IMG/VR virus record: IMGVR_UViG_3300021963_006848
Span: 33,039-97,038 of that record
Origin: a virus
Length of the DNA stretch: 64,000 nt
Reading direction: 5' to 3' (one strand)
Part shown: in pieces, positions 23,560-37,796 of the stretch
Layout of the letters: every line of letters starts with the position of its first letter
Numbering within the stretch: position 1 is the stretch's first letter
The notes under the pieces: generated by a model
Database searches by the model: none
What the model saw: only the letters and a program-made list of their open reading frames with translations
Told to the model about the DNA's origin: nothing
Position numbers and translations under genes: made by a program

Positions 23560-23823
23560 TTAATACTCTCCGTAAAGATCAAATTTCTCTGGTTCCGGAG
23601 GGGTAACTGTGATTTCCTGCTCACGGATTGCATAAAGCTTTCCGGCAAGTGGATCTAATCTATATGCTCCTTTAAACTTAGTCTTACGTAGGTAGGTTGT
23701 CAATGTTGGAACCAACCCTTCTATAACAACTCCTAAATCTATGTTCAGCTCCCAGTTATCACCAGGAGGAACACGGGTAGCAATATGCTCTGTGAATTCT
23801 TGTTTAATTACTTCTGTTGCCAT
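23560..23823 (-). CDS. hypothetical protein
   Basis: 87-aa ORF coupled to the queF stop. Confidence 0.7.
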   Translation of the reverse strand: MATEVIKQEFTEHIATRVPPGDNWELNIDLGVVIEGLVPTLTTYLRKTKFKGAYRLDPLAGKLYAIREQEITVTPPEPEKFDLYGEY

Positions 23824-24737
23824 TATTGACGTAACGTTTTAGCGATAGTGTATTCTGGTTCTGTAAAGAAATCTGGGATGTAGCTCTGATGAGTAGCTCG
23901 GATAGGGTTAATATCTAAACCTCCTCTACGGGTGTATAAACATGCTACCATTAACTGCTCTGGTTTATATGCATCAGTTAAATGCTTGAATACCATTTCA
24001 CAAATCTCTTCATGGAAGTGGGATACAGTTCTATGAGATACAATATACTTTGCTAAAGACTCAGGAGAAGGCATATTCGTACCTTCCATACGGATGTAAA
24101 CATCGCCCCAGTCTGGTTGATTTGTTACTCTACAGTTTGAACGTAATAAGTTAGACTTATACCGTACTTCTGCTGTTCCTACTTCTGCAACGAATTTAGT
24201 TTCTAACTGACTAGCATCAGATTTAAAGGAAGTAAAATCTACTTGATCTAAATCAGCTGCATCAGCTAAATCTACATAACCTTCGAATGTAATTGGATTA
24301 GCTTCTTCTATCGTTGAATAGAAACTAACTGTAGTAGTGGTATTTAGTAACTCATCTAAATCTCTCTTTACCCTAGCTTCAATACCTGCAATACAATCTG
24401 CTGCTGTTTCTCCGATACGAGTCATATTAAATGAGTTTAGGTATAGTTTAATAGATTTAGACTCTACGTGAAACTCTGAAGAAGCAGGGCATACAATCTT
24501 CAACATACCTGCTACAGGCTGTCCTTTAGTTGTAATGGCTGAAACCTCATATGCATTCCATGTATCTACTCCTACGAATTCTTTACCAGATAACTCATAA
24601 GCTTCTCGATTTAAGTATCGAGGAATCTTTACTAACAATTCCGGATCATAGGTATCTTTATAACCTTCACCACCGACTTTACCTAAATGCTTACCGGCAA
24701 TGGCTACTACTGCTTCTTGATTTTTTTCGTTTGACAT
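23823..24737 (-). CDS. queF: NADPH-dependent preQ0 reductase, bimodular type
   Basis: WNAYEVS, VESKSIKLYLNSF, SNCRVTNQPDWG, FHEEICE, YTRRGGLDINP. Confidence 0.95.
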   Translation of the reverse strand: MSNEKNQEAVVAIAGKHLGKVGGEGYKDTYDPELLVKIPRYLNREAYELSGKEFVGVDTWNAYEVSAITTKGQPVAGMLKIVCPASSEFHVESKSIKLYLNSFNMTRIGETAADCIAGIEARVKRDLDELLNTTTTVSFYSTIEEANPITFEGYVDLADAADLDQVDFTSFKSDASQLETKFVAEVGTAEVRYKSNLLRSNCRVTNQPDWGDVYIRMEGTNMPSPESLAKYIVSHRTVSHFHEEICEMVFKHLTDAYKPEQLMVACLYTRRGGLDINPIRATHQSYIPDFFTEPEYTIAKTLRQ

Positions 24738-24738
24738 A

Positions 24739-25257
24739 TTATTTTATAAAATTTAAAATTTGATCTACTCTTTGCATAGGTGAACCAGTTATAGTTAAGT
24801 AAGGTTGTCTAACTGTTTCTAATTCTGATTTAAAACGTTCATCTATCTTCTTTCTCCACTCTTCATTAACACTTCTCACTCCATCATCTACTGATTCGAA
24901 TTCAATAGGAAAATAAACATAATGTGTGTATTCTCCTTTGATTCTATTCCAAGTATCTTGAATAAAGTCATGAGTACCTCTATCTATACCATCCATGAAA
25001 CAAGTATAAACTAAAACGTCCATATAGCATCTATCTAAGACTAAGTTATAAGGCTTAAGTAAAGCTTCTAAGTGAAAAGAACTAATAGCTAACTGAGTAG
25101 CATCACTGCCATACTCGTTAATAGGAAAACCATAACTTGCTACAGTTCGAGTAGATTCATTTATAAACTCATACTTAGGTAATTTATTCTTAAGAAGCTC
25201 ATATACCGTAGTCTTACCTGTGCTACTTGCTCCTACTAATGCTATTCTTTTTATCAT
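24739..25257 (-). CDS. P-loop nucleotide kinase (AAA_28/dNMP-kinase-like)
   Basis: GASSTGKTT, LDR, DDGVR. Confidence 0.75.
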   Translation of the reverse strand: MIKRIALVGASSTGKTTVYELLKNKLPKYEFINESTRTVASYGFPINEYGSDATQLAISSFHLEALLKPYNLVLDRCYMDVLVYTCFMDGIDRGTHDFIQDTWNRIKGEYTHYVYFPIEFESVDDGVRSVNEEWRKKIDERFKSELETVRQPYLTITGSPMQRVDQILNFIK

Positions 25258-25820
25258 GACAAAACTACTTTTAAAAACTTATACCACATATACAATGCCT
25301 TATCTCTTAATGTAAGATAAAAAGCTCGTTCATCCAACCCTTCTTGTAAAAATTCTTCATAATCTATAACCTCTCCTTCGTCAACTCCAGCAGTTACTTT
25401 ATGTAAAACTGCTCCTGCAGTTACATACTGCTTATACGATCTTTCTTGAGGATCTTTACCTTTTAATTCTGGATACTTTGTAATTAGTCCTGGGTGTCCG
25501 TTAAAGATTCTATATCTATCACAAATCTCAGGAGGCATTACTCTCAACCACCCGTGCAAGGTAACTACTAGTTTCTCAGGAGGAGCTAAATGACTAAATA
25601 GGTACTCGTAATCCTGTAATGTAGGTTTATTCGGAGTTACATAGAAAAAAGGTAATTTTAGTATCCTCTCATCTACCTTACGTAAATGTTCTGGTCTTTC
25701 ATTAGTTACAATCAAATTAGGCCATCTACCTAATTTCTCAGACAATGCTACTATCTCAGAACCTGTTTGAGAGAAGAAAGCTACCCACTGATTGCTAGTA
25801 TTTGGTTGATCCGTTTGCAA
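25254..25820 (-). CDS. PurN-like formyltransferase, candidate preQ1 formyltransferase (DpdN-like)
   Basis: FSQTGS, LHGWLRV, NGHPGL, LKG.DP, HKV..GVDEG. Confidence 0.8.
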   Translation of the reverse strand: MQTDQPNTSNQWVAFFSQTGSEIVALSEKLGRWPNLIVTNERPEHLRKVDERILKLPFFYVTPNKPTLQDYEYLFSHLAPPEKLVVTLHGWLRVMPPEICDRYRIFNGHPGLITKYPELKGKDPQERSYKQYVTAGAVLHKVTAGVDEGEVIDYEEFLQEGLDERAFYLTLRDKALYMWYKFLKVVLS

Positions 25821-26598
25821 ATTGTCTAAATCTTTGAATGTTAAATAATACCTTACTTACGTCTTCTACATTAGCATTAATCATCTCAAATAATTTTTGA
25901 GACTCTTTATCCCATAAACCTTCTTCTTTATACTCAATCCCTTTAATACCATGAACTACCGGGTTAGACGTATCTAGTGAATAAATCCAGTCGTAATTTG
26001 CATGCTTATAGAATGCAAACTCTTGAGGTAATCCACATCCAAGTAAATGGTGAGGTTTATCTACATTAATAACACCGTCTTTGAGTAGATCTCCAAGTAA
26101 CTTCACACGTCCTAACATCCAGCTAACATACTTATTAGGATGTGGTACTGATTGTGTATAATACGAGTAGTCAAAAGATATAGCTATCATATCTACGTTA
26201 GCTACCTTATCCATATGTTGATAACATTCAACTATCTGCTTATATGTTCTTCCTTGAACTACCCCTATCTTTTTATTTTTAATTTCCGAGTACTTACTAT
26301 TCCACATATCCATAGAAGCCATAGTTTTAACACTATCTTCTAATACGTCTGGCACTATATACCAAGTAGGGTTTAGTTTCTTAATCCACCATGCAAATTC
26401 TTCTGAATCAAATGCATTTCCTAATTCAAAAATAGAATTATCTAGAATTACCTCTCTACCTTTCTCAATAGCATCATAAAATAAGTCATAGTACTCATAA
26501 TCTTCTGCAAATAAATGCACTAAAGCATAATCGTAGTCTGTATACTGTTGAACAGTTTCAAAAATACTTTTTGGAGATTCGTGAGCTATCTTAATCAT
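25795..26598 (-). CDS. TGT/DpdA-like TIM-barrel protein
   Basis: ILDNS.FE, VPD, VVQG, HLLG, SLDTS parallel DpdA/TGT motifs; sits in the que cluster. Confidence 0.7.
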   Translation of the reverse strand: MIKIAHESPKSIFETVQQYTDYDYALVHLFAEDYEYYDLFYDAIEKGREVILDNSIFELGNAFDSEEFAWWIKKLNPTWYIVPDVLEDSVKTMASMDMWNSKYSEIKNKKIGVVQGRTYKQIVECYQHMDKVANVDMIAISFDYSYYTQSVPHPNKYVSWMLGRVKLLGDLLKDGVINVDKPHHLLGCGLPQEFAFYKHANYDWIYSLDTSNPVVHGIKGIEYKEEGLWDKESQKLFEMINANVEDVSKVLFNIQRFRQFANGSTKY

Positions 26599-26785
26599 TT
26601 GTTATATCGTTTAGAGTTTTTTGAACATCTTGCAATTGCTCTGCTAACTTGTCAAGTAAATCATCTGCTTGCTTTGTTAGGTCAACATTATTTAACAGAG
26701 AAATAACTGCCGATAAGGGCACCATTTCAGTCTGGTATGCTTGTACATAGACAGCATGCTTTTTTATATCTTCTATTAACGACAT
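26591..26785 (-). CDS. hypothetical protein
   Basis: 64-aa ORF coupled to both neighbours. Confidence 0.65.
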   Translation of the reverse strand: MSLIEDIKKHAVYVQAYQTEMVPLSAVISLLNNVDLTKQADDLLDKLAEQLQDVQKTLNDITND

Positions 26786-27255
26786 TAGAAAAACTTTTTT
26801 AGATTTGGTTTAAAATAATTTACCGACTTCATTACCTTTCTATCTCTAGTTCGGTATACAATATAGAAGTCTCCTACCTTCTCGTAATGACAAGGCTCTC
26901 CTTGCTGCTCAGAGCGTATATTAACAGTCTCGATAGCCTCTTCTTCTGACTTACAAGCTTTAGACATATTAGATGCTTGAACTTCCGCATAAGCGTCATT
27001 AAACTTATCTTTAAGTCCGTGTAACATTACACCATTACCTAACGATACGTAAGTAATATCACATAAAGCATCTAATACTTCTACAATATCACCTTTCTCA
27101 CATGCTTCTTTATACTCTTCTAGTTCTTCTAGAATAAAGTTATATACAAATTCCCACTCTTTACGTTCAGGTATAACTGGGGTATAGTTATTTGGTTTAC
27201 CGAAGGTAGCGTTAAACAGCTCTACTTCGTTCACAAAAGGTACGTTATTTTTCAT
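26785..27255 (-). CDS. MazG-like nucleoside triphosphate pyrophosphohydrolase
   Basis: EELEE...EVLDALCDITYV...V.ASNMSK. Confidence 0.85.
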   Translation of the reverse strand: MKNNVPFVNEVELFNATFGKPNNYTPVIPERKEWEFVYNFILEELEEYKEACEKGDIVEVLDALCDITYVSLGNGVMLHGLKDKFNDAYAEVQASNMSKACKSEEEAIETVNIRSEQQGEPCHYEKVGDFYIVYRTRDRKVMKSVNYFKPNLKKFF

Positions 27256-27294: not shown

Positions 27295-28005
27295 TTAGTT
27301 GCGACATTTTCCTGCTAATTCTATATTCTTATAGAACTCAGCTCTACAAGAATCTTCTTTTAAAAATGCTCCTGAAAGTTTAGCTGTCTGCATTGAAGCA
27401 CCATTATGTTTAGTACCTCGGCAAGATACACAATTGTGTGTTGCATCTACCATTACAGCTACTCCTTCGTTACCTTCGCAGATCTTATCAATAGCATGAT
27501 GAATAGCTACTGTTAATTGCTCTTGGATAGCTCCTCGACGACCGAAGTATTCTACAATACGGTTTAGTTTAGATAATCCAATAACCTTACCGTCTTTACC
27601 TGGAATATAAGCTACACTAACTCGACCTTGAATAGTCTGGTGATGATGTGAACACATCGAAGTTAAAGGAATGTTACTTTCCTGTACTAATCCGTCATAA
27701 CCGTCTGATGGGAATGCTGTAATTTCTGGTGGTGCTGAGAATCGACCTGCCCATAGGTCATTTACGTATGCTTTTGCTACTCGACGTGGAGTATCAGATG
27801 AGTTTGGATCATTTCTCCAATCACACCCTAAAGCATCTAAGAACTTACCGAATGCTTCTGCAGCGTTTGAGATAATTTCATATTTCTCAGAGTCGGTAAG
27901 ATGAACATCTACCATTTTACTAATTTTTTGCTTTTCAGCTAACTGTGTGGATAAACCATTTGCGTAACCTGCTTCGGTTACCTCTAACGAATACTTCTTC
28001 TTCAT
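27295..28005 (-). CDS. folE: GTP cyclohydrolase I
   Basis: DTPRRVAK, SMCSHH, GLSKLNR, QEQLT, HNCVSCRG. Confidence 0.96.
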   Translation of the reverse strand: MKKKYSLEVTEAGYANGLSTQLAEKQKISKMVDVHLTDSEKYEIISNAAEAFGKFLDALGCDWRNDPNSSDTPRRVAKAYVNDLWAGRFSAPPEITAFPSDGYDGLVQESNIPLTSMCSHHHQTIQGRVSVAYIPGKDGKVIGLSKLNRIVEYFGRRGAIQEQLTVAIHHAIDKICEGNEGVAVMVDATHNCVSCRGTKHNGASMQTAKLSGAFLKEDSCRAEFYKNIELAGKCRN

Positions 28006-28015
28006 TTTATATGTT

Positions 28016-28042
28016 TGTTTTTAAAGTGGTGCTACGACACTA
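28016..28042 (-). promoter_or_regulatory. preQ1-I-like riboswitch candidate, copy 1 (folE leader)
   Basis: AGUG-UCGUAGCAC-CACU-UUAAAAACA; 27 nt identical to 31310-31336; lies between the promoter at 28052-28082 and the folE ATG. Confidence 0.7.
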
Positions 28043-28051
28043 CTATAACTT

Positions 28052-28082
28052 AATTTACGAAAACTTTGCTTAAGATCCAAAT
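28052..28082 (-). promoter_or_regulatory. Bacteroidota-type promoter
   Basis: ATTTG-N16-TTCGTAAATT. Confidence 0.7.
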
Positions 28083-28504
28083 TATTTCAAGTAATCTTGA
28101 ACGTAATCACTGTCTTTATTTTCCCAGGGGAATACTAACCATCTAGCATCATCGATTAACTCGCAATACTTATCCGGAACGTACTTACTATTATGCCTAA
28201 ATGCTAATGATAAAGTTAAAAATTCATAAGCATCAATTTCTGCAAAAGTAATACCTGTATCGCATATATCATCTACTACTAGAGTTTTATGTCTCAGTCG
28301 AGTAGGTAGTAATTTAGCGTCTGCTAAACTTATATAATTAATTTTGTACCTATGTGAAATTAGAACTGCAGGAATTAAACCTCCTCTAGGTAAACCTGTA
28401 ACGTATGCTATAGGTTCTTGACAATCTAGCCACATTCCAATTTTATCAATTTGACTCTCCACCCACTCCCAGGTAAGGTCTCTTGTAATAATTACTTCTC
28501 TCAT
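28082..28504 (-). CDS. type I phosphoribosyltransferase (Gpt/Hpt-like)
   Basis: GLPRGGLIPA, LVVDDICDTGIT PRPP loop, WLVFPWE. Confidence 0.9.
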   Translation of the reverse strand: MREVIITRDLTWEWVESQIDKIGMWLDCQEPIAYVTGLPRGGLIPAVLISHRYKINYISLADAKLLPTRLRHKTLVVDDICDTGITFAEIDAYEFLTLSLAFRHNSKYVPDKYCELIDDARWLVFPWENKDSDYVQDYLK

Positions 28505-28899
28505 TTATTAGAAGTAGTGTAGCTAATTGAACTTCCGGACGGATATCCTAAAGTAGTTGATGTTTTTGTAAATGGCGGTGTAGCATATGTAATTGAACCA
28601 CCACCCGGTGTTGTTGTAACTACTGCCTGCGTAGTACATGTTCCTGATAATCCTATCGGGTTAGTAAGTGGTACATCTCCTACATAAAATGGATTTACCT
28701 TATGAGGTTCTTGCCATCTTGGATATGATTCATGTACTCTAAAAGTGTTGTGATCTGAAATGATACCTCCAAGTGGTATTGAATCGTCTACTTCTTTTAA
28801 CTTATCTTTTAATGCATCCCATTGTTTTGGAGTTGGTGCGTACTCGTGGCAAGCTTCTACAAAACCTTGCATCCATGTAACAAATTCTTTTGATGTCAT
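28501..28899 (-). CDS. hypothetical protein
   Basis: 132 aa, F..W..GF N-terminus, Thr-rich tail. Confidence 0.65.
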   Translation of the reverse strand: MTSKEFVTWMQGFVEACHEYAPTPKQWDALKDKLKEVDDSIPLGGIISDHNTFRVHESYPRWQEPHKVNPFYVGDVPLTNPIGLSGTCTTQAVVTTTPGGGSITYATPPFTKTSTTLGYPSGSSISYTTSNK

Positions 28900-28904
28900 A
28901 ACTT

Positions 28905-29504
28905 TTAATTACAATTTATTTTATATTCTTGCCATTTTTTAGTAGGCGGTTGATTCGGAAAATAATAACATTCAGTTTTACCGCTCTTAGTAAATTTAAT
29001 TACTTTATAAAATGCATCAGGTACTGTGGCATTTGTAGGTAGTTTGATAGACTTATCGCTGAAAATTGCTCTAACTGTTACTTCTAACACTTCTGTATCT
29101 GCCCATACTCTCTCTTGTGCTTCCAATAGTCGCCACTCTCCTCTATTTAATCTTTCATTCTGTAAAGCAGAATTTAGATAGGTAAAAGTCTGTTTTAAGT
29201 TCTCTTTGGAGTCGGTAAAATGTGCAGCAGGAGCCATATGTCCTTTATCGTATATGTTTGCTGCGTAGTCATTATTATCAGATGTATGGTAATCTTTCTC
29301 TGTGTAGAAATCTAACCCTTTTCTATCTGCTACTTTTACTATAGGTCTTGCAGTGTATTTAACCCAGAGAGGCTGTTCTTTAGTCTCTGAATACATTACT
29401 TCAAATATTGGAGTTTTAACTAGTACTGAATCTCGTAATTGCCCGTAAGCAGTTGTTAATGTTAATAAAAATGCTAAAAGAAGCAAATTCGATTTTCTTC
29501 CCAT
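28905..29504 (-). CDS. exported DNA/RNA non-specific endonuclease (NucA-like)
   Basis: Signal peptide AYG/Q; DKGHMAPA, TF.Y.N..Q...LNRGEW..LE, VPDAFYKV. Confidence 0.9.
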   Translation of the reverse strand: MGRKSNLLLLAFLLTLTTAYGQLRDSVLVKTPIFEVMYSETKEQPLWVKYTARPIVKVADRKGLDFYTEKDYHTSDNNDYAANIYDKGHMAPAAHFTDSKENLKQTFTYLNSALQNERLNRGEWRLLEAQERVWADTEVLEVTVRAIFSDKSIKLPTNATVPDAFYKVIKFTKSGKTECYYFPNQPPTKKWQEYKINCN

Positions 29505-29764
29505 CTGTAATTGTTTAACTGTTTATAATCGGTTTCTGATAAAATTGTAACATTTTGAGTATCTACAGGATGTTCATCTATGTAGTTAATTAACTCTAGG
29601 AAAGTTACAGGACCAAATTCTATTTCGTCGTAATCTTCTGTTATTAAGTGAAGGTTACCGTTCTGTACTTTATAATCCCATACAATCAAACCATCTACTA
29701 GTATTTCAACATCTCCCATGTTGTCTATACCCACTTCAAATTTTAATATATCTTCTAAGTTCAT
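29474..29764 (-). CDS. acidic hypothetical protein; start revised to MNLEDIL
   Basis: TATTTATA motif at 29771-29778 precedes the ATG at 29764. Confidence 0.6.
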   Translation of the reverse strand: MNLEDILKFEVGIDNMGDVEILVDGLIVWDYKVQNGNLHLITEDYDEIEFGPVTFLELINYIDEHPVDTQNVTILSETDYKQLNNYRWEENRICFF

Positions 29765-29783
29765 AGTAAATATAAATAGAGGT

Positions 29784-30566
29784 TTACACAGCTCTCTTGG
29801 TATCAAAAGCAATAATATGCTCTCTACCTGTAAATCGGTATGCATTTTGAGTACACCATTCTATAACTAAAGGATATACTCTAATTAGCTCTTGACGATT
29901 ATCTCCTGGAGGCATTATAATTACCTTATTTTTAGGTATCTCTAACTCATCCAACCAAGCTCTTGTCTCTAACCATTCTTCAGGTCTCTCTACTGGATTA
30001 GCTACGATTTTAACGTGGTAATCTTTATGGTATGCCAATGTCTCTTTAATTGCTTCTTTATTGAGACGATGCCTGTTGTGCGTGTCAATAAGCTTCTGGT
30101 CCGTAACTGCACCTTGAGGAGTAAGTACCCCCAATACAGGCACACTATTGGTAAACTTAGGACTAAGACTAATAAGGTCAATAGGATAGTCGGTAGCGAG
30201 GAAATGGCTCCCTTCAGTCTCGATGGTAATAATGATACCTCTTTCATGAGCAAAATGTGTTAATTCGTTAACTAAAGCTGGATGCATTGTTGGTGAACCC
30301 CCTGTTAACATCATCTCCTTCACTTCTGGGTTCTCATCGTATATCTTAACGATATCGTTGAAATTATAAATACCTTTTTCTGGATGTATACTGGTATACC
30401 AAGAGTCACACCATCCGCCTTCTCCAAAGTAACAACGGTGAGTACAACCTGTAGTTCTAATTGCTACAGTTGGGTAGCCAGCTCTTGAACCTTCTGATTG
30501 TACGCAAGTGTACAATTCTACGATAGGTAACTTTTTACTATAATCTGTAATTCTTCCTAAACTCAT
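29784..30566 (-). CDS. queE: 7-carboxy-7-deazaguanine synthase (radical SAM)
   Basis: QSEG...G.PT..IRTTGC...C...WCDS, TGGSP, IETEG, SLSPK. Confidence 0.92.
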   Translation of the reverse strand: MSLGRITDYSKKLPIVELYTCVQSEGSRAGYPTVAIRTTGCTHRCYFGEGGWCDSWYTSIHPEKGIYNFNDIVKIYDENPEVKEMMLTGGSPTMHPALVNELTHFAHERGIIITIETEGSHFLATDYPIDLISLSPKFTNSVPVLGVLTPQGAVTDQKLIDTHNRHRLNKEAIKETLAYHKDYHVKIVANPVERPEEWLETRAWLDELEIPKNKVIIMPPGDNRQELIRVYPLVIEWCTQNAYRFTGREHIIAFDTKRAV

Positions 30567-30577
30567 TATTTTTTATT

Positions 30578-31039
30578 TTATGCTTGATAAGATGCAGAAT
30601 TTCTTTCGTGTTCGTAAACTTCTACTTTTACAGCTTTTACTCGTCCTTCGGTTTCTGCTTCTAAGAACTCATTAATTTCGTTATACAGATACTCTGCAAA
30701 TCTTTCACATCCTGTTGCAGGAAGTATACGTAACTGTATTATACCGTCTTCATCCATCTGCTTAAAGTTCTCTAAATATGGATCATCCTCTGCTACTATT
30801 GTAGTATGGTCTAATAAGTAGTTAAAGAAGTCTTTAGGTGAACTACCGTACATAGTAGTCTTTGCTCTCTTCATTCCACCAAAGTCCCATACCCAGTTAC
30901 GTTCGTCTAATTCTCCTTCGAACCATACTCTAAAAGATACTGCGTATCCATGTAAATACTTACAGTGAGTTCCTTCTGCTTTCCATTGACGAAAACAAGT
31001 AGAGTATCCGTCAAATAATTTTGTTGATTGAAATTTCAT
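30578..31039 (-). CDS. queD: 6-carboxy-5,6,7,8-tetrahydropterin synthase
   Basis: HCKYLHGY, DFG, LDH, E..A, EVYE...NSA. Confidence 0.9.
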   Translation of the reverse strand: MKFQSTKLFDGYSTCFRQWKAEGTHCKYLHGYAVSFRVWFEGELDERNWVWDFGGMKRAKTTMYGSSPKDFFNYLLDHTTIVAEDDPYLENFKQMDEDGIIQLRILPATGCERFAEYLYNEINEFLEAETEGRVKAVKVEVYEHERNSASYQA

Positions 31040-31049
31040 ATTGTATAAT

Positions 31050-31304
31050 TTAAACTAATTCTTCGTAAATTCCAACTAGTTCGGAAACAATTAACAATAC
31101 GGCTGCAATCTCTATTGAAAAAAATAGAGCTACATATCCTGCAATCCTAATACCGGATTTAAGGAAACTTACTAGTTGGTGTTTTTTTGGATCGGGAAGT
31201 TTTTGACCTTTTATTACTAAATCGTCATAAAAAGTTACTGCAGGTTTTACTTTTTTACCTTTCAGATTTCGAGATGCGTGTACTACATCATGCGGGTTTG
31301 TCAT
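31050..31304 (-). CDS. small membrane protein leading the queD-queE operon
   Basis: 84 aa with hydrophobic C-terminal half; downstream of riboswitch copy 2. Confidence 0.65.
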   Translation of the reverse strand: MTNPHDVVHASRNLKGKKVKPAVTFYDDLVIKGQKLPDPKKHQLVSFLKSGIRIAGYVALFFSIEIAAVLLIVSELVGIYEELV

Positions 31305-31309
31305 GGGTG

Positions 31310-31336
31310 TGTTTTTAAAGTGGTGCTACGACACTA
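31310..31336 (-). promoter_or_regulatory. preQ1-I-like riboswitch candidate, copy 2
   Basis: Identical 27-mer; lies between the promoter at 31349-31379 and the ATG at 31304. Confidence 0.7.
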
Positions 31337-31348
31337 TTGTCTAAAACT

Positions 31349-31379
31349 AATGTACGAATAATTATCTTACGAAACAACT
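31349..31379 (-). promoter_or_regulatory. Bacteroidota-type promoter
   Basis: AGTTG-N16-TTCGTACATT. Confidence 0.75.
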
Positions 31380-31383
31380 TTTA

Positions 31384-31500
31384 CTAAAAATTCTTATAAA
31401 TAAAAGGGTCTCTTTTTTTTAATTCTTCTATTTTCTTCTTAAACTCTCTTTTCTTTTTCCAGTTTTTGAAAAGTTTCTTTATAGTATCTAAAAATTTCAT
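31384..31500 (-). CDS. 38-aa basic peptide coupled to the carbamoyltransferase (DPFIY motif)
   Basis: MKFLDTIKKLFKNWKKKREFKKKIEELKKRDPFIYKNF; ATGA overlap with the upstream stop. Confidence 0.65.
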   Translation of the reverse strand: MKFLDTIKKLFKNWKKKREFKKKIEELKKRDPFIYKNF

Positions 31501-33176
31501 TTGTGTTTCATTTTAATAATGAGGTAGTTATCTATTACAAGAAAATCCATCTTACTATCTAAAAATCTCTCTACTGCTTGCTTTGGTGTTATAGTAATTG
31601 TCTGATCCTTAAAATTAAAAGATGTATTTAAACATATAGGATAACCTGATATACGTTTCAATGCTAAAAGCAATTGGTAATACCTTGGGTTTTGTTCTTT
31701 AGTAACTGTTTGAACTCTTGCTGTATTATCAATATGAGTAATAGAAGGTAGTCTGTGGTTCTTTTTAACTTCTACAACTTGATTCATATAAGGTACCGGT
31801 TCTTTTATATCGAAAAATATTTTAGCGTCTTCTTCTATACATGAAGGAGCGAAAGGTCTAAAGCTTTCTCTCTTTTTGATAACTTTGTTGATTTTATCTT
31901 TAATACCTGGATGAAGAGGTGAAGCAAGTATAGACCTATTACCTAGAGCTCTTGCTCCAAATTCCATATTACCTTGGAACCATCCTACTATATTCCCGCT
32001 ATGGATTATAGATGCTACCTTATTCAGAAGTCTCTCTTCTGTAGGGTATCTAAAGTAGTATATCTTGTTACCAAAGTACTCTAATTGAGTACGTATACTT
32101 ACTTCATTGAAAGAAGGACCTGTGTAAGGAACGCTATTATCCTTTCTAGGACCTTTATAAGATGCTAAGCATGCACCAATAGCAGAACCTGCATCTGAAG
32201 GTGCAAATGGTATGTGGATTGATGAATAATGTTTATATGCTTTTGTGTTAGCTAATCCATTATACGCACATCCGCCTCCTAAACAGAGATTATCAGAATT
32301 AACTAATTCTTTAGCTTTCTCTAGAATTCTATTAAACTGCTTTTCGTAAATAAACTGTACAGCTGCTGCTAGATCATAATCATCTTGTGTAATTTCATCT
32401 TCCGGAAGGCGAGGACCTCTACCTAATACATTACATAGGTCAGAAGTAAACATTATCTTATCTGAATACTCCCAAGTAAAGTATTCTGGGTAAAATGAAA
32501 AAATTGATTCTTTTTCGAATTTAAAAAGCTTATGAAGGAATGGAACATACTTACTAGCATCTCCATATCCAGCCATACCCATAACTTTGTACTCACCTTC
32601 GTTAGGTTTGAAGCCAAGAAATGCGGTAAAGGTAGAGTAGAATAATCCTAAAGATTCTGGGAAGTTAATAGCAAATACTTTTTCTATAGAACTATCTTTT
32701 GCTTTTGAAATTGTAACTGTTTCAAACTCTCCAACTCCGTCTATAGTTACAACTGCCGCTTCTTTGTAAGGGCTAGTAAAATAGGAAAATGCTGCGTGAG
32801 ATAAATGGTGTTCAACATACCTAACAGGGCCTTGGTATAGGAAATGTTTTGCTAATAAAAAGTTAGGATTGTGAAGTTCTTTTCTCTCTTTGAGAAATTT
32901 TAATCTTCTAAAGAATGTACGAAAAGGATATTTGTTAAAAGATTTGAGTACTCTTGCTCTCTTTAATTCTGGAATCTCATACCAGCAAACTTCGTCAATG
33001 TCGTTTATTGTAAGTTTACTTGCTCTTAAAACCCATTTGATCGCATCTACTGGAAAACTATCGTCATGTTTGATACCTGATAGCTTTTCTTGTTCAATGG
33101 CATAAAGAACCTTACCGTCTTTAACGATGCATGCTGCAGAGTCGTGGTAAAATGCTGAAATGCCTAGTTGTATCAT
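31497..33176 (-). CDS. O-carbamoyltransferase, NodU/CmcH family
   Basis: HDSAA, EHHLSHAA, DGVGE, YKVMGMAGYG, EFGARALGNRS, RESFRPFAP, LNTSFN. Confidence 0.95.
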   Translation of the reverse strand: MIQLGISAFYHDSAACIVKDGKVLYAIEQEKLSGIKHDDSFPVDAIKWVLRASKLTINDIDEVCWYEIPELKRARVLKSFNKYPFRTFFRRLKFLKERKELHNPNFLLAKHFLYQGPVRYVEHHLSHAAFSYFTSPYKEAAVVTIDGVGEFETVTISKAKDSSIEKVFAINFPESLGLFYSTFTAFLGFKPNEGEYKVMGMAGYGDASKYVPFLHKLFKFEKESIFSFYPEYFTWEYSDKIMFTSDLCNVLGRGPRLPEDEITQDDYDLAAAVQFIYEKQFNRILEKAKELVNSDNLCLGGGCAYNGLANTKAYKHYSSIHIPFAPSDAGSAIGACLASYKGPRKDNSVPYTGPSFNEVSIRTQLEYFGNKIYYFRYPTEERLLNKVASIIHSGNIVGWFQGNMEFGARALGNRSILASPLHPGIKDKINKVIKKRESFRPFAPSCIEEDAKIFFDIKEPVPYMNQVVEVKKNHRLPSITHIDNTARVQTVTKEQNPRYYQLLLALKRISGYPICLNTSFNFKDQTITITPKQAVERFLDSKMDFLVIDNYLIIKMKHK

Positions 33177-33214: not shown

Positions 33215-33288
33215 TGGACCAACCTGGGCTCGAACCAGGGACCTACTGATTATGAGTCAGTTGCTCTAACCAACTGAGCTATAAGTCC
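33215..33288 (-). tRNA. tRNA with CAT anticodon, probably Ile2 (lysidine type), otherwise elongator Met
   Basis: GGACTTATAGCTCAGTTGGTTAGAGCAACTGACT-CAT-AATCAGTAGGTCCCTGGTTCGAGCCCAGGTTGGTCCA. Confidence 0.9.
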
Positions 33289-35955: not shown

Positions 35956-36027
35956 TTGCGGGAGAAGGATTCGAACCTCCGACCCCAAGGTTATGAGCCT
36001 TGTGAGCTACCTCTGCTCTATCCCGCG
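35956..36027 (-). tRNA. tRNA-Met(CAT), initiator-like
   Basis: CGCGGGA...TCCCGCA-A with C1:A72 mismatch; CAAGG-CTCATAA-CCTTG. Confidence 0.9.
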
Positions 36028-36035
36028 ATATAATG

Positions 36036-36108
36036 TACTCCGTAGGGGTTTCGAACCCCTAATCTCCTCCGTGAAAGGGAGGCGACTTAACCGTTTGTCC
36101 AACGGAGC
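36036..36108 (-). tRNA. tRNA-Glu(TTC)
   Basis: GCTCCGT/ACGGAGT, CCTCC-CTTTCAC-GGAGG, AGGGG-TTCGAAA-CCCCT. Confidence 0.92.
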
Positions 36109-36115
36109 GGAATTG

Positions 36116-36498
36116 TGGAGATGGAGGGAGTCGAACCCTCGTCCAAATACGGATTTAATAAACCTCATTCACAAGCTTAGTTAATTTTTCTAAATTAACA
36201 AAATATAAAGTTTGATAAATGTGGGAACCAAACTTTCAAACAACCTGGTCTCGAAATTATTTAATAGAGCTCCGACCTGTTACTCCAACTCTCACTTCTT
36301 TTTAAATTCCCATGAGTGATACGGGAAAGATTAGGCAGCTACTGCGTAATCAGCACCTACGAAAGCCATAGCGTCTTCGAAAGTGAAAGAAGATAATTCT
36401 TCTGCGTTTATTGTTTGATAGGTGTTTAAGGATTTCCATCTAATCCTGCTTGCATCAATTGTACCAACTCATCGTACCTGTCAAAACCGGGCATCCCC
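36116..36498 (-). ncRNA. ssrA: tmRNA with tag AEELSSFTFEDAMAFVGADYAVAA*
   Basis: GGGGATG/CATCTCC acceptor with G3:U, TTTGAC, GGACGAGGGTTCGACTCCCTC T arm, ATAAAC-GCA resume site, tag ORF at 36331-36405. Confidence 0.93.
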
Positions 36499-36503
36499 AA
36501 TTG

Positions 36504-36575
36504 AGCTTCCTCGAGGAATCGAACCCCGTTATCCTGAGTACAAATCAGGCGCATCACCATTTATGCTTAGGAAGC
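36504..36575 (-). tRNA. tRNA-Thr(TGT)
   Basis: GCTTCCT/AGGAAGC, CCTGA-TTTGTAC-TCAGG. Confidence 0.92.
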
Positions 36576-36956: not shown

Positions 36957-37796
36957 TTACTTGATATGTTCTGCTAAAACTTTTTCTACATGGGATTTAG
37001 CTACTTCCCATTCAACTGGTCCTGTCTCGTCTTCGTATTGAACAGGATCTTTACGGCCCAACTTAATAAAAGCTTCAATACGCTCCACAGAGCTAGCAGA
37101 CTTATAGTCGCTATTACCAGAAGGGTAAGGCTTATATGAAGTGTTAGTTCTCTTGTACACCTCATCAAAGTCCAAACCGAGTGTTTCACATGCTTTAAGT
37201 CCATCTTCTAGAATACCAAATTTATCTGTATCTAAATAGGGAGTATAAAACTTAACACGTTCTGCATCCCAGTTACCAATTCTAAATGCTTCCATATCTG
37301 CATCTCTAAACTCTTGACGACAGTCAGGGTAGATTGCATGATCTCCAGCATGAATACCTAGAGAAATAAAGGTATCTTCTTTTGTTTCGTTCGCTACTGA
37401 TAAAGCTACTGCTTGTACTAATGAACTAAAGATCTTATTACGATTAGGTACAACAGTATCTTTCATGTTATCTTGTTCGTAATGACCTTCCGGTACATCT
37501 TTACCTCCTTCAACTAATGCTGAGTTTAGTAGTTCTTTCAACCCATCTAATTTAATAATCTGATGTGTTGGTGGGAGAAAAGAATAATTCTTATCGTTAT
37601 CAAACGGTGGATGCATAGCATTCCATATCTCATTAATATACTCTACTAATGATGTTGCACGTTCTAACTCTACTCTATGTTTCTGACCGTAATCAAAAGA
37701 CAAAGTAGTAACTCTGTAGCCATTTGCTAACAAATGTAGTAATAAAGTAGAGGAGTCCATCCCTCCAGATAAGGACAATACAGCATTCTTCGCCAT
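36957..37796 (-). CDS. queC: 7-cyano-7-deazaguanine synthase
   Basis: SLSGGMDS, FDYGQKH, VVPNRN, HAGD...YPDCR. Confidence 0.95.
   Translation of the reverse strand: MAKNAVLSLSGGMDSSTLLLHLLANGYRVTTLSFDYGQKHRVELERATSLVEYINEIWNAMHPPFDNDKNYSFLPPTHQIIKLDGLKELLNSALVEGGKDVPEGHYEQDNMKDTVVPNRNKIFSSLVQAVALSVANETKEDTFISLGIHAGDHAIYPDCRQEFRDADMEAFRIGNWDAERVKFYTPYLDTDKFGILEDGLKACETLGLDFDEVYKRTNTSYKPYPSGNSDYKSASSVERIEAFIKLGRKDPVQYEDETGPVEWEVAKSHVEKVLAEHIK

Follow-up and report, generated by a model that had tools for sequence, protein, structure and literature searches.

A compact preQ1-I-like RNA element ahead of the 7-deazaguanine synthesis genes of a phage, a candidate translational riboswitch

The DNA analyzed in this study is a stretch of 64,000 nucleotides (nt) from the virus record IMGVR_UViG_3300021963_006848 (positions 33,039 to 97,038 of that record), hereafter the window, and its subject is a 27-nt repeat, TAGTGTCGTAGCACCACTTTAAAAACA, located in the leaders of genes for the synthesis of 7-deazaguanines. 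A sequence-only reading of the window had noticed the repeat and likened it to preQ1-I riboswitches. The exact repetition that it described was borne out by a pattern search, in which the 27-mer had two exact occurrences, at 28016-28042 and 31310-31336, both on the minus strand; allowing up to three mismatches revealed no other copy in the window (100 shuffles gave 0), and the whole 97-kb virus record contains no copy besides those two. The likeness of the copies extends 3 bases past the 27-mer, with one mismatch (ACA[A/C]AC). The first copy (copy A) precedes folE (27295-28005, minus strand), which encodes a GTP cyclohydrolase I of 236 amino acids, and the second (copy B) precedes a block formed by a small open reading frame (small ORF) of 84 amino acids (31050-31304), queD (30578-31039) and a queE-like radical SAM gene (29784-30566), all on the minus strand. 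The identities previously given to folE, queD and queE hold in Pfam (GTP_cyclohydroI, PTPS and Radical_SAM, respectively).

As had also been claimed, each copy is placed between a promoter-like element and an ATG, with TTG-N20-TAnnTT upstream in both cases. In the folE leader, this element (28052-28080, minus strand) comprises TTG at 28080-28078, a spacer of 20 nt and TAAATT at 28057-28052; the candidate aptamer (28013-28041) starts 10 nt past the TAAATT box, and its conserved C (28017) lies 11 nt ahead of the folE ATG (28005). In the leader of the small-ORF/queD/queE block, the corresponding element (31349-31377, minus strand) comprises TTG at 31377-31375, again a spacer of 20 nt, and TACATT at 31354-31349; the candidate aptamer (31307-31335) starts 13 nt past this box, and its conserved C (31311) lies 6 nt ahead of the ATG (31304). 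As RNA, both copies read P1(4) - UCGUAG - CAC - P1'(4) - UUAAAAA - CANN, where P1 is a hairpin stem. In copy A, the 5' strand of P1 (AGUG, 28041-28038) and its 3' strand (CACU, 28028-28025) enclose the loop UCGUAGCAC (28037-28029), in which U5 is 28037, G10 is 28032 and the specificity base C13 is 28029, and are followed by the A-rich segment L3 (UUAAAAA, 28024-28018) and the conserved C25-A26 (28017-28016); the whole tail spans 28024-28013, and the presumed 3' strand of a second helix, P2, reaches 28013. The same parts of copy B lie at 31335-31332 (P1 5' strand), 31331-31323 (loop), 31322-31319 (P1 3' strand), 31318-31312 (L3) and 31311-31310 (C25-A26), within a tail spanning 31318-31307, the presumed P2 3' strand again reaching its end (31307). 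No Shine-Dalgarno sequence was found in the two window leaders, and a terminator scan found no terminator behind the motif; thus, an expression platform can only be the start region itself. Translation initiation in Bacteroidota relies on unstructured A-rich sequence upstream of the start, and the A-rich tail together with the presumed P2 3' strand covers roughly positions -4 to -20 relative to the AUG.

The repeat is a member of a large phage family and occurs well beyond this Flavobacterium-type phage. A first search of IMG/VR with the degenerate pattern TCGTAGCAC-N4-TTAAAAAC yielded 73 viral-contig loci, and the flanking 4 nt paired perfectly with the N4 in 68 of the 72 scorable matches, the four non-pairing matches being GC-rich coding DNA. 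After the addition of loop and stem variants through further pattern scans and protein-anchored folE and small-ORF loci, the collection, whose coverage is that of pattern- and protein-anchored loci, amounted to 79 distinct variants at 152 loci, 58 of them with two copies. A covariance model built from 71 variants (R1) scores copies A and B at 48.7 and 47.2 bits, respectively, and detects the motif directly ahead of folE in the cultured phage vB_FspM_immuto_2-6A of Flavobacterium (hereafter immuto) with 43 bits, the motif being absent from Cellulophaga phage phiST. Both cultured phages were found by a protein-level search, a megablast of the window against cultured phages having given no DNA-level match. 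Among one genome each from 185,579 bacterial and archaeal species, six stretches were retrieved, and only one of them was a true contig: a 5.9-kb contig of a metagenome-assembled genome with both copy types and the phage gene order, which looks like a mis-binned phage. The other five were discarded as chance matches in coding DNA. R1 gave no match in 151 sampled Bacteroidota genomes, in which the Rfam PreQ1 model produced a single candidate of 25 bits. The motif family appears to be confined to phages. No description of a phage preQ1 riboswitch came up in full-text literature searches, and the word "riboswitch" has 0 occurrences in the paper on the DNA modifications of immuto and phiST (PMC10516641).

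The motif is associated with a small set of genes: 76 of the 79 variants directly precede a homologue of folE, the small ORF, queD or queE. Of these 76, the small ORF, ahead of queD and queE, comes first in 44, folE in 27, queD in 3 and queE in 2; one more variant precedes a truncated folE. At one locus (L043), the gene behind the motif is not folE but folE2 (PF02649; 8331-8942, plus strand), which encodes a non-homologous GTP cyclohydrolase; the motif reads here AGAG / UCGUAGAAC / CUCG, with the first pair mismatched. The presence of the motif ahead of folE2 as well indicates that the element goes with the step of the pathway, whatever the lineage of the gene. In a divergent variant upstream of another folE (L290:3950-3982, plus strand), the P1 3' strand is preceded by UC, the type I dinucleotide, instead of AC; this variant is followed by GGAG, and R1 gives it only 13 bits.

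The leader anatomy is also shared by the family. Of 78 distinct variants, 74 have a promoter-like TTG-N19/20-TAnnTT element, searched with a pattern of our own, that lies 3-20 nt ahead of P1, with a spacer of exactly 20 nt in 68, and the distance from the conserved C to the ATG ranges from 2 to 13 nt, with a mode of 6. This element resembles the -33/-7 promoter of Bacteroidota. A sigma-70 promoter scan of the leaders performed no better than on shuffled sequences and was set aside. In metatranscriptomes from four studies, contigs of related strains span folE and queD/queE and extend into both leaders; as proof of transcription start or of regulation they were rejected, because they come from related strains and RNA libraries may hold DNA. 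In some related phages (L246, L247, L251 and L282), which have no aptamer, the folE ATG lies only about 5 nt past the TAnnTT box, which suggests that these folE mRNAs are leaderless or near-leaderless.

The AGUG/CACU stem proposed by the sequence-only reading is supported by compensatory changes across 71-79 relatives. Of the cells of the 4-bp helix in the alignment of 71 sequences, 98.9% are paired, as against 83.6% in shuffled alignments and 27-69% when the partner strand was slid, and none of 500 shuffles reached the observed pairing. Compensatory changes occur at two of the four P1 pairs, namely pair 1 (A-U in 48 sequences, G-C in 10 and U-A in 10) and pair 3 (U-A in 59 and A-U in 12), the remaining two being G-C pairs that never vary. 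The invariance of the G-C pair closing P1 is partly imposed by the search patterns, yet this pair is present in the folE-anchored set too. Outside the stem, A9, G10 and A26, which are not fixed by the search patterns, occur in 79 of 79 variants, A12 in 78 and C6 in 77, and U5, A24 and C25 are invariant as well. The specificity base C13, also present in 79 of 79, is fixed by the patterns, and it is found in all folE-upstream motifs collected by protein anchoring. Since the arms vary while staying paired and the asymmetric 9-nt loop and the tail are fixed, the conserved object would be an RNA helix, which argues against a dimeric DNA operator.

Support for P2 is modest. Position 8 can pair with N28, the third base after C25, in 62 of the 79 variants; where position 8 is C, its partner is G in seven of eight cases, and the only G8 faces a C (permutation p ~0.008, calculated on related sequences). 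Both window copies would have U8-A28 at this place. An alternative P2 register, in which G10 pairs with the second C of ACAC, was rejected as not conserved, the folE-type tails reading CAAA. A further regularity concerns the length of the tail: a fifth P1 pair is present in four of five variants with tails of 8-9 nt and absent in 30 of 31 with tails of 6-7 nt. Tail length thus tracks helix length, as expected if the tail spans the P1 groove of an H-type pseudoknot.

The loop and tail had been likened to those of type II preQ1-I aptamers, and this likeness extends residue for residue to the binding pocket of the 33-mer aptamer of Thermoanaerobacter tengcongensis (Tte; PMC7641330, PMC11625349). 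In Tte, P1 has 5 bp, the ligand pairs with C15 and is read along its edge by U6 and A29, and P2 is made up of G11-C30 and C9-G33, with the flanking pairs A10-A32 and G8-A31 (PMC7641330). Across class I, the base immediately 5' of the P1 3' strand is the specificity C, which follows an A in types II and III and a U in type I; L1 contains a U, L3 is A-rich, and the floor of the pocket is a G-C pair, the G of which touches the preQ1 aminomethyl group in every type (PMC11625349). The phage residues U5, C6, G7, A9, G10, A12, C13, the pair G4-C14, A24, C25 and A26 match these described positions, their Tte counterparts being U6, C7, G8, (C9), A10, G11, A14, C15, the pair G5-C16, A29, C30 and A31; the U8-A28 of the window copies takes the place of C9-G33.

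Type II is the class I type to which the phage element comes closest on sequence comparison. Besides the hairpin, the A-rich tail and the potential for an H-type pseudoknot, the phage motif shares with type II aptamers (Tte, the Bacillus subtilis queC leader and RF00522) the L1/P2 strand U-C-G-(C/U)-A-G, the AC that carries the specificity C, the G-C floor pair and a tail that begins with (U/A)U, is A-rich and ends in A-C-A. Both precede genes for 7-deazaguanine synthesis and, as in Tte, the phage motif overlaps the translation start region. The differences mostly concern size. P1 is one pair shorter (4 bp against 5), and in the window copies a U-U mismatch occupies the fifth position; L2 has 3 nt (C-A-C) instead of 4-6 and lacks one residue relative to Tte; L3, with two residues fewer than in Tte, is mostly 7 nt long, as against 8-9; and the core amounts to about 29 nt instead of 33-34. 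Moreover, the phage motif has no Shine-Dalgarno sequence to sequester, was found on phage contigs only, and belongs to DNA hypermodification instead of tRNA queuosine synthesis. Types I (Carnobacterium antarcticum) and III (Escherichia coli) share the pocket logic of specificity C, L1 U, L3 A and G-C floor (PMC11625349), but type I has UC before the P1 3' strand, a UU motif and a second ligand site involving a tail C, and in type III P1 is followed by UU and an AAGG Shine-Dalgarno sequence is engaged in pairing. In the window copies, AC stands before the P1 3' strand, and the U after P1 is single, with a C next to it. UC occurs in the relative L290, and UU in two distinct variants.

Taken together, these data suggest that the two repeats are probably compact, phage-specific translational riboswitches of the preQ1-I type, sensing preQ1 or a close 7-deazaguanine, and that the candidate riboswitch most likely exerts feedback control over the first three steps of 7-deazaguanine synthesis. 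In the mechanism that we propose, the mRNA would begin a few bases upstream of the element, at a Bacteroidota-type promoter, and the RNA would fold the 4-bp P1 (AGUG/CACU) closed by the invariant G-C. A 7-deazaguanine base, most likely preQ1 and possibly preQ0 or formyl-preQ1, would pair with the invariant C before the P1 3' strand, and its other edge would be read by the invariant U that follows P1 together with the final A of the A-rich tail, which would dock in the P1 groove. Pairing of the C-A-N-N after the tail with the loop G-A-N would form P2 and close the H-type pseudoknot, and this would tie up the unstructured A-rich region (roughly -4 to -20) on which initiation depends in Bacteroidota mRNAs lacking a Shine-Dalgarno sequence. 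Such a switch would act in the OFF direction: it would lower the translation of both folE and the small-ORF/queD/queE block and throttle entry to the guanine-replacement pathway.

The computable parts of the earlier preQ1-I-like interpretation are all supported, and several results nevertheless weigh against it. The Infernal search with the Rfam PreQ1 model (RF00522; curated gathering score 39 bits) gave no match to the window copies, whether at the gathering score, at E<=10 in searches of 4.3 kb and of 101 nt or on the 97-kb record, and no match to the immuto copy in 81-101-nt searches at E<=10; in 101-nt searches at E<=10, preQ1-II (RF01054), preQ1-III (RF02680), the THF-II/folE motif and all other Rfam families gave no match either. 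What the PreQ1 model does reach, below the cut-off, are family variants with a fifth P1 pair, a longer loop and a longer tail. Thus, for a variant with a 5-bp P1, a loop starting with UUCG and a longer tail (L219), PreQ1 is the top Rfam family (21.8 bits, E 0.0067), and for another (L218) it is the sole family reported (14.6 bits); both motifs stand upstream of folE genes about 75% identical to that of the window. These matches link the family to RF00522 through intermediates. Since the window copies do not attain the gathering score, they are not RF00522 members and are filed here as a new compact variant of the class. To our knowledge, a preQ1-I aptamer with a four-pair P1 and a 3-nt L2 has so far not been described. 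U5, C13, G2, G4, the A-run and its C are partly imposed by the collecting patterns. The covariation evidence for P2 is modest and drawn from related sequences, and G10-C25 contribute none because they never vary. Nearest-neighbour folding stability is not significant (z -0.7 and +0.1), and the minimum free energy structure of the window copies is a competing 4-bp hairpin, GUGU[CGUA]GCAC (28029-28040 and 31323-31334, minus strand), in which the P1 5' strand pairs inside the loop and which would hide the specificity C. As a conserved apo state this hairpin was dropped, as it belongs to the GCAC-loop subtype only and the GAAC-loop subtype cannot form it. Lastly, the link of the motif to a QueC/QueF-type pathway, detailed below, is confounded by phylogeny.

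The gene content of the record places the element in a defined chemical route. Downstream of folE lie a MazG-like gene (26785-27255), a DpdA3-like transglycosylase (25795-26598), which shares 73% identity with the protein annotated as DpdA in phage immuto, a formyltransferase resembling DpdN (25254-25820), a kinase-like gene (24739-25257) and QueF (23823-24737), and QueC is encoded at ~37062-37784. The deazaguanine set of the record is thus composed of FolE, QueD, QueE, QueC, QueF and the DpdA3-like and DpdN-like proteins, so that the phage would encode a full route from GTP to preQ1 plus transglycosylase and formyltransferase, like immuto. No motif was found at the QueC and QueF genes of the record. 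In immuto, all DNA guanine is replaced by formyl-dPreQ1, whereas phiST, which lacks QueC and QueF, stops at 7-carboxy-7-deazaguanine (CDG)/7-deazaguanine (DG) and has 7-deazaguanine DNA (PMC10516641). Among 82 folE loci, QueF or DpdN is present in the flank of 35 and absent from that of six when the motif is there, and present in 10 and absent in 31 when it is not, an association that fits a ligand of the preQ0/preQ1 type and in which phylogeny is a confounder.

These pathway data bear directly on the identity of the ligand. A riboswitch fold that binds preQ0, CDG, N-formyl-preQ1 or 7-deazaguanine instead of preQ1, the shortened L2 and P1 being an adaptation to it, overlaps with the interpretation given above and differs from it in the ligand only; we consider it rather unlikely. 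It would agree with the restriction of the motif to steps 1-3, with QueC and QueF devoid of it, with the end product of the cultured relative, formyl-dPreQ1, DpdN acting on the free base or on DNA (PMC10516641), with an L2 one residue shorter than that of Tte (PMC7641330), and with the affinity of type II aptamers for preQ0, which already lies only ~17-fold below their affinity for preQ1 (PMC11625349). Nevertheless, the floor G that contacts the aminomethyl group (PMC11625349) is invariant in the phage family, the remaining contact residues are all unchanged, and nothing in the sequence points specifically to a bulkier or carboxylated ligand.

The main rival to a preQ1-type riboswitch is that the hairpin is an RNA operator for a phage or host translational repressor or activator, with the loop and tail as the protein site and without direct sensing of a small molecule. 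A tiny element with a covarying stem and a nearly invariant loop is indeed what coat-protein or RegA-type operators look like, and the failure of the Rfam PreQ1 model on the window copies and the marginal predicted stability of the stem alone would be in line with it. A protein site would not, however, account for the one-to-one coincidence of the conserved positions with the ligand-contact and pseudoknot positions of solved preQ1-I structures (PMC7641330, PMC11625349), for PreQ1 being the top match of the closer variants, for the joint variation of tail and helix length, or for an element that tracks the pathway step even onto the non-homologous folE2; in addition, no co-occurring candidate RNA-binding protein was seen, in an analysis that included no systematic search for one. 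An operator of this kind is, in our opinion, distinctly unlikely. A DNA-level transcription-factor operator, or a passive conserved leader or translational enhancer without sensing, would suit the location directly downstream of a promoter-like element and the imperfect inverted repeat, but it is very improbable, given that the motif always lies on the sense strand at a tight distance from the ATG, that its arms are free to change if paired and its asymmetric 9-nt spacer and tail are not, unlike dimeric operators, and that the copies number only two per genome and sit on a single pathway, where a general enhancer would be expected to be more widespread.

If the preQ1-type riboswitch proposed here is correct, its relevance extends beyond this genome. 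Riboswitches known earlier from phages, such as the c-di-GMP-I riboswitches of Clostridioides difficile prophages and the glutamine aptamers of cyanophages, are also metabolite-sensing RNAs on phage genomes; they belong to ordinary bacterial classes and have been described as rare finds (McCown et al. 2017, PMC5473149). In contrast, the phage motif constitutes a distinct subtype, apparently confined to phages and abundant in its group, a group of Flavobacteriia phages that has dedicated aptamer-like leaders, in two copies, on the pathway for its own DNA-base chemistry, the replacement of guanine. One member of the group is cultured and its DNA has been chemically characterized. Binding of a 7-deazaguanine would lower the known size limit of natural aptamers, and regulation as proposed would show riboswitch action in Bacteroidota-type initiation without a Shine-Dalgarno sequence, provide a compact ligand-responsive part for Bacteroidota genetics and offer a handle on how phages balance the drain of GTP against DNA hypermodification. 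The family also exposes a blind spot of homology models, as the Rfam model misses both the window copies and that of the cultured phage. The most far-reaching version, in which this would be the smallest natural aptamer (~29-nt core), phage-only, with preQ0 or N-formyl-preQ1 as a non-preQ1 ligand, switching without a Shine-Dalgarno sequence by folding a Kozak-like A-rich leader and exerting RNA-level control over complete guanine replacement in phage DNA, is put forward only tentatively, as a possibility on the improbable side. The candidate is directly testable, as the RNA has 35 nt and a cultured phage-host pair exists.

The small ORF behind copy B belongs to a virus-only family and heads queD-queE in most relatives. 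Its N-terminus is variable, and its C-terminal half is hydrophobic and strongly conserved, with the consensus PDPKxHQ..SF.KS.IR...E.VGI.EELV, and ends in EELV. No family was found for it in Pfam or PHROG, and the protein atlas gave only virus-only hypothetical clusters. Many homologues in other phages have no upstream motif and are located after tRNAs or inside operons; thus, the small ORF is not a riboswitch marker.

Several neighbouring features were observed around the two copies, all of them on the minus strand. A phosphoribosyltransferase-like protein of 140 amino acids (phrog_8995; 28082-28504) ends just upstream of the folE promoter, and phage immuto carries the same gene at the equivalent place; its substrate may be the free 7-deazaguanine base or a purine. 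The copy B promoter is immediately preceded by a NodU/CmcH-type carbamoyltransferase of 559 amino acids (Carbam_trans_N and Carbam_trans_C; 31497-33176), with a possible function in further nucleic-acid or sugar modification. A DNA/RNA non-specific endonuclease of 199 amino acids (Endonuclease_NS; 28905-29504) is encoded within the gene string that goes from queD/queE to folE. Beyond the deazaguanine block, and between it and a cluster of tRNA and transfer-messenger RNA (tmRNA) genes, there is a full-length GOLLD RNA (Rfam RF02032; 33684-34106) with 271.5 bits and an E-value of 2.5e-76. The phage-encoded tmRNA (36113-36498; 116.6 bits) is flanked by four tRNA genes, which are located at 33215-33288, 35956-36027, 36036-36108 and 36504-36575.

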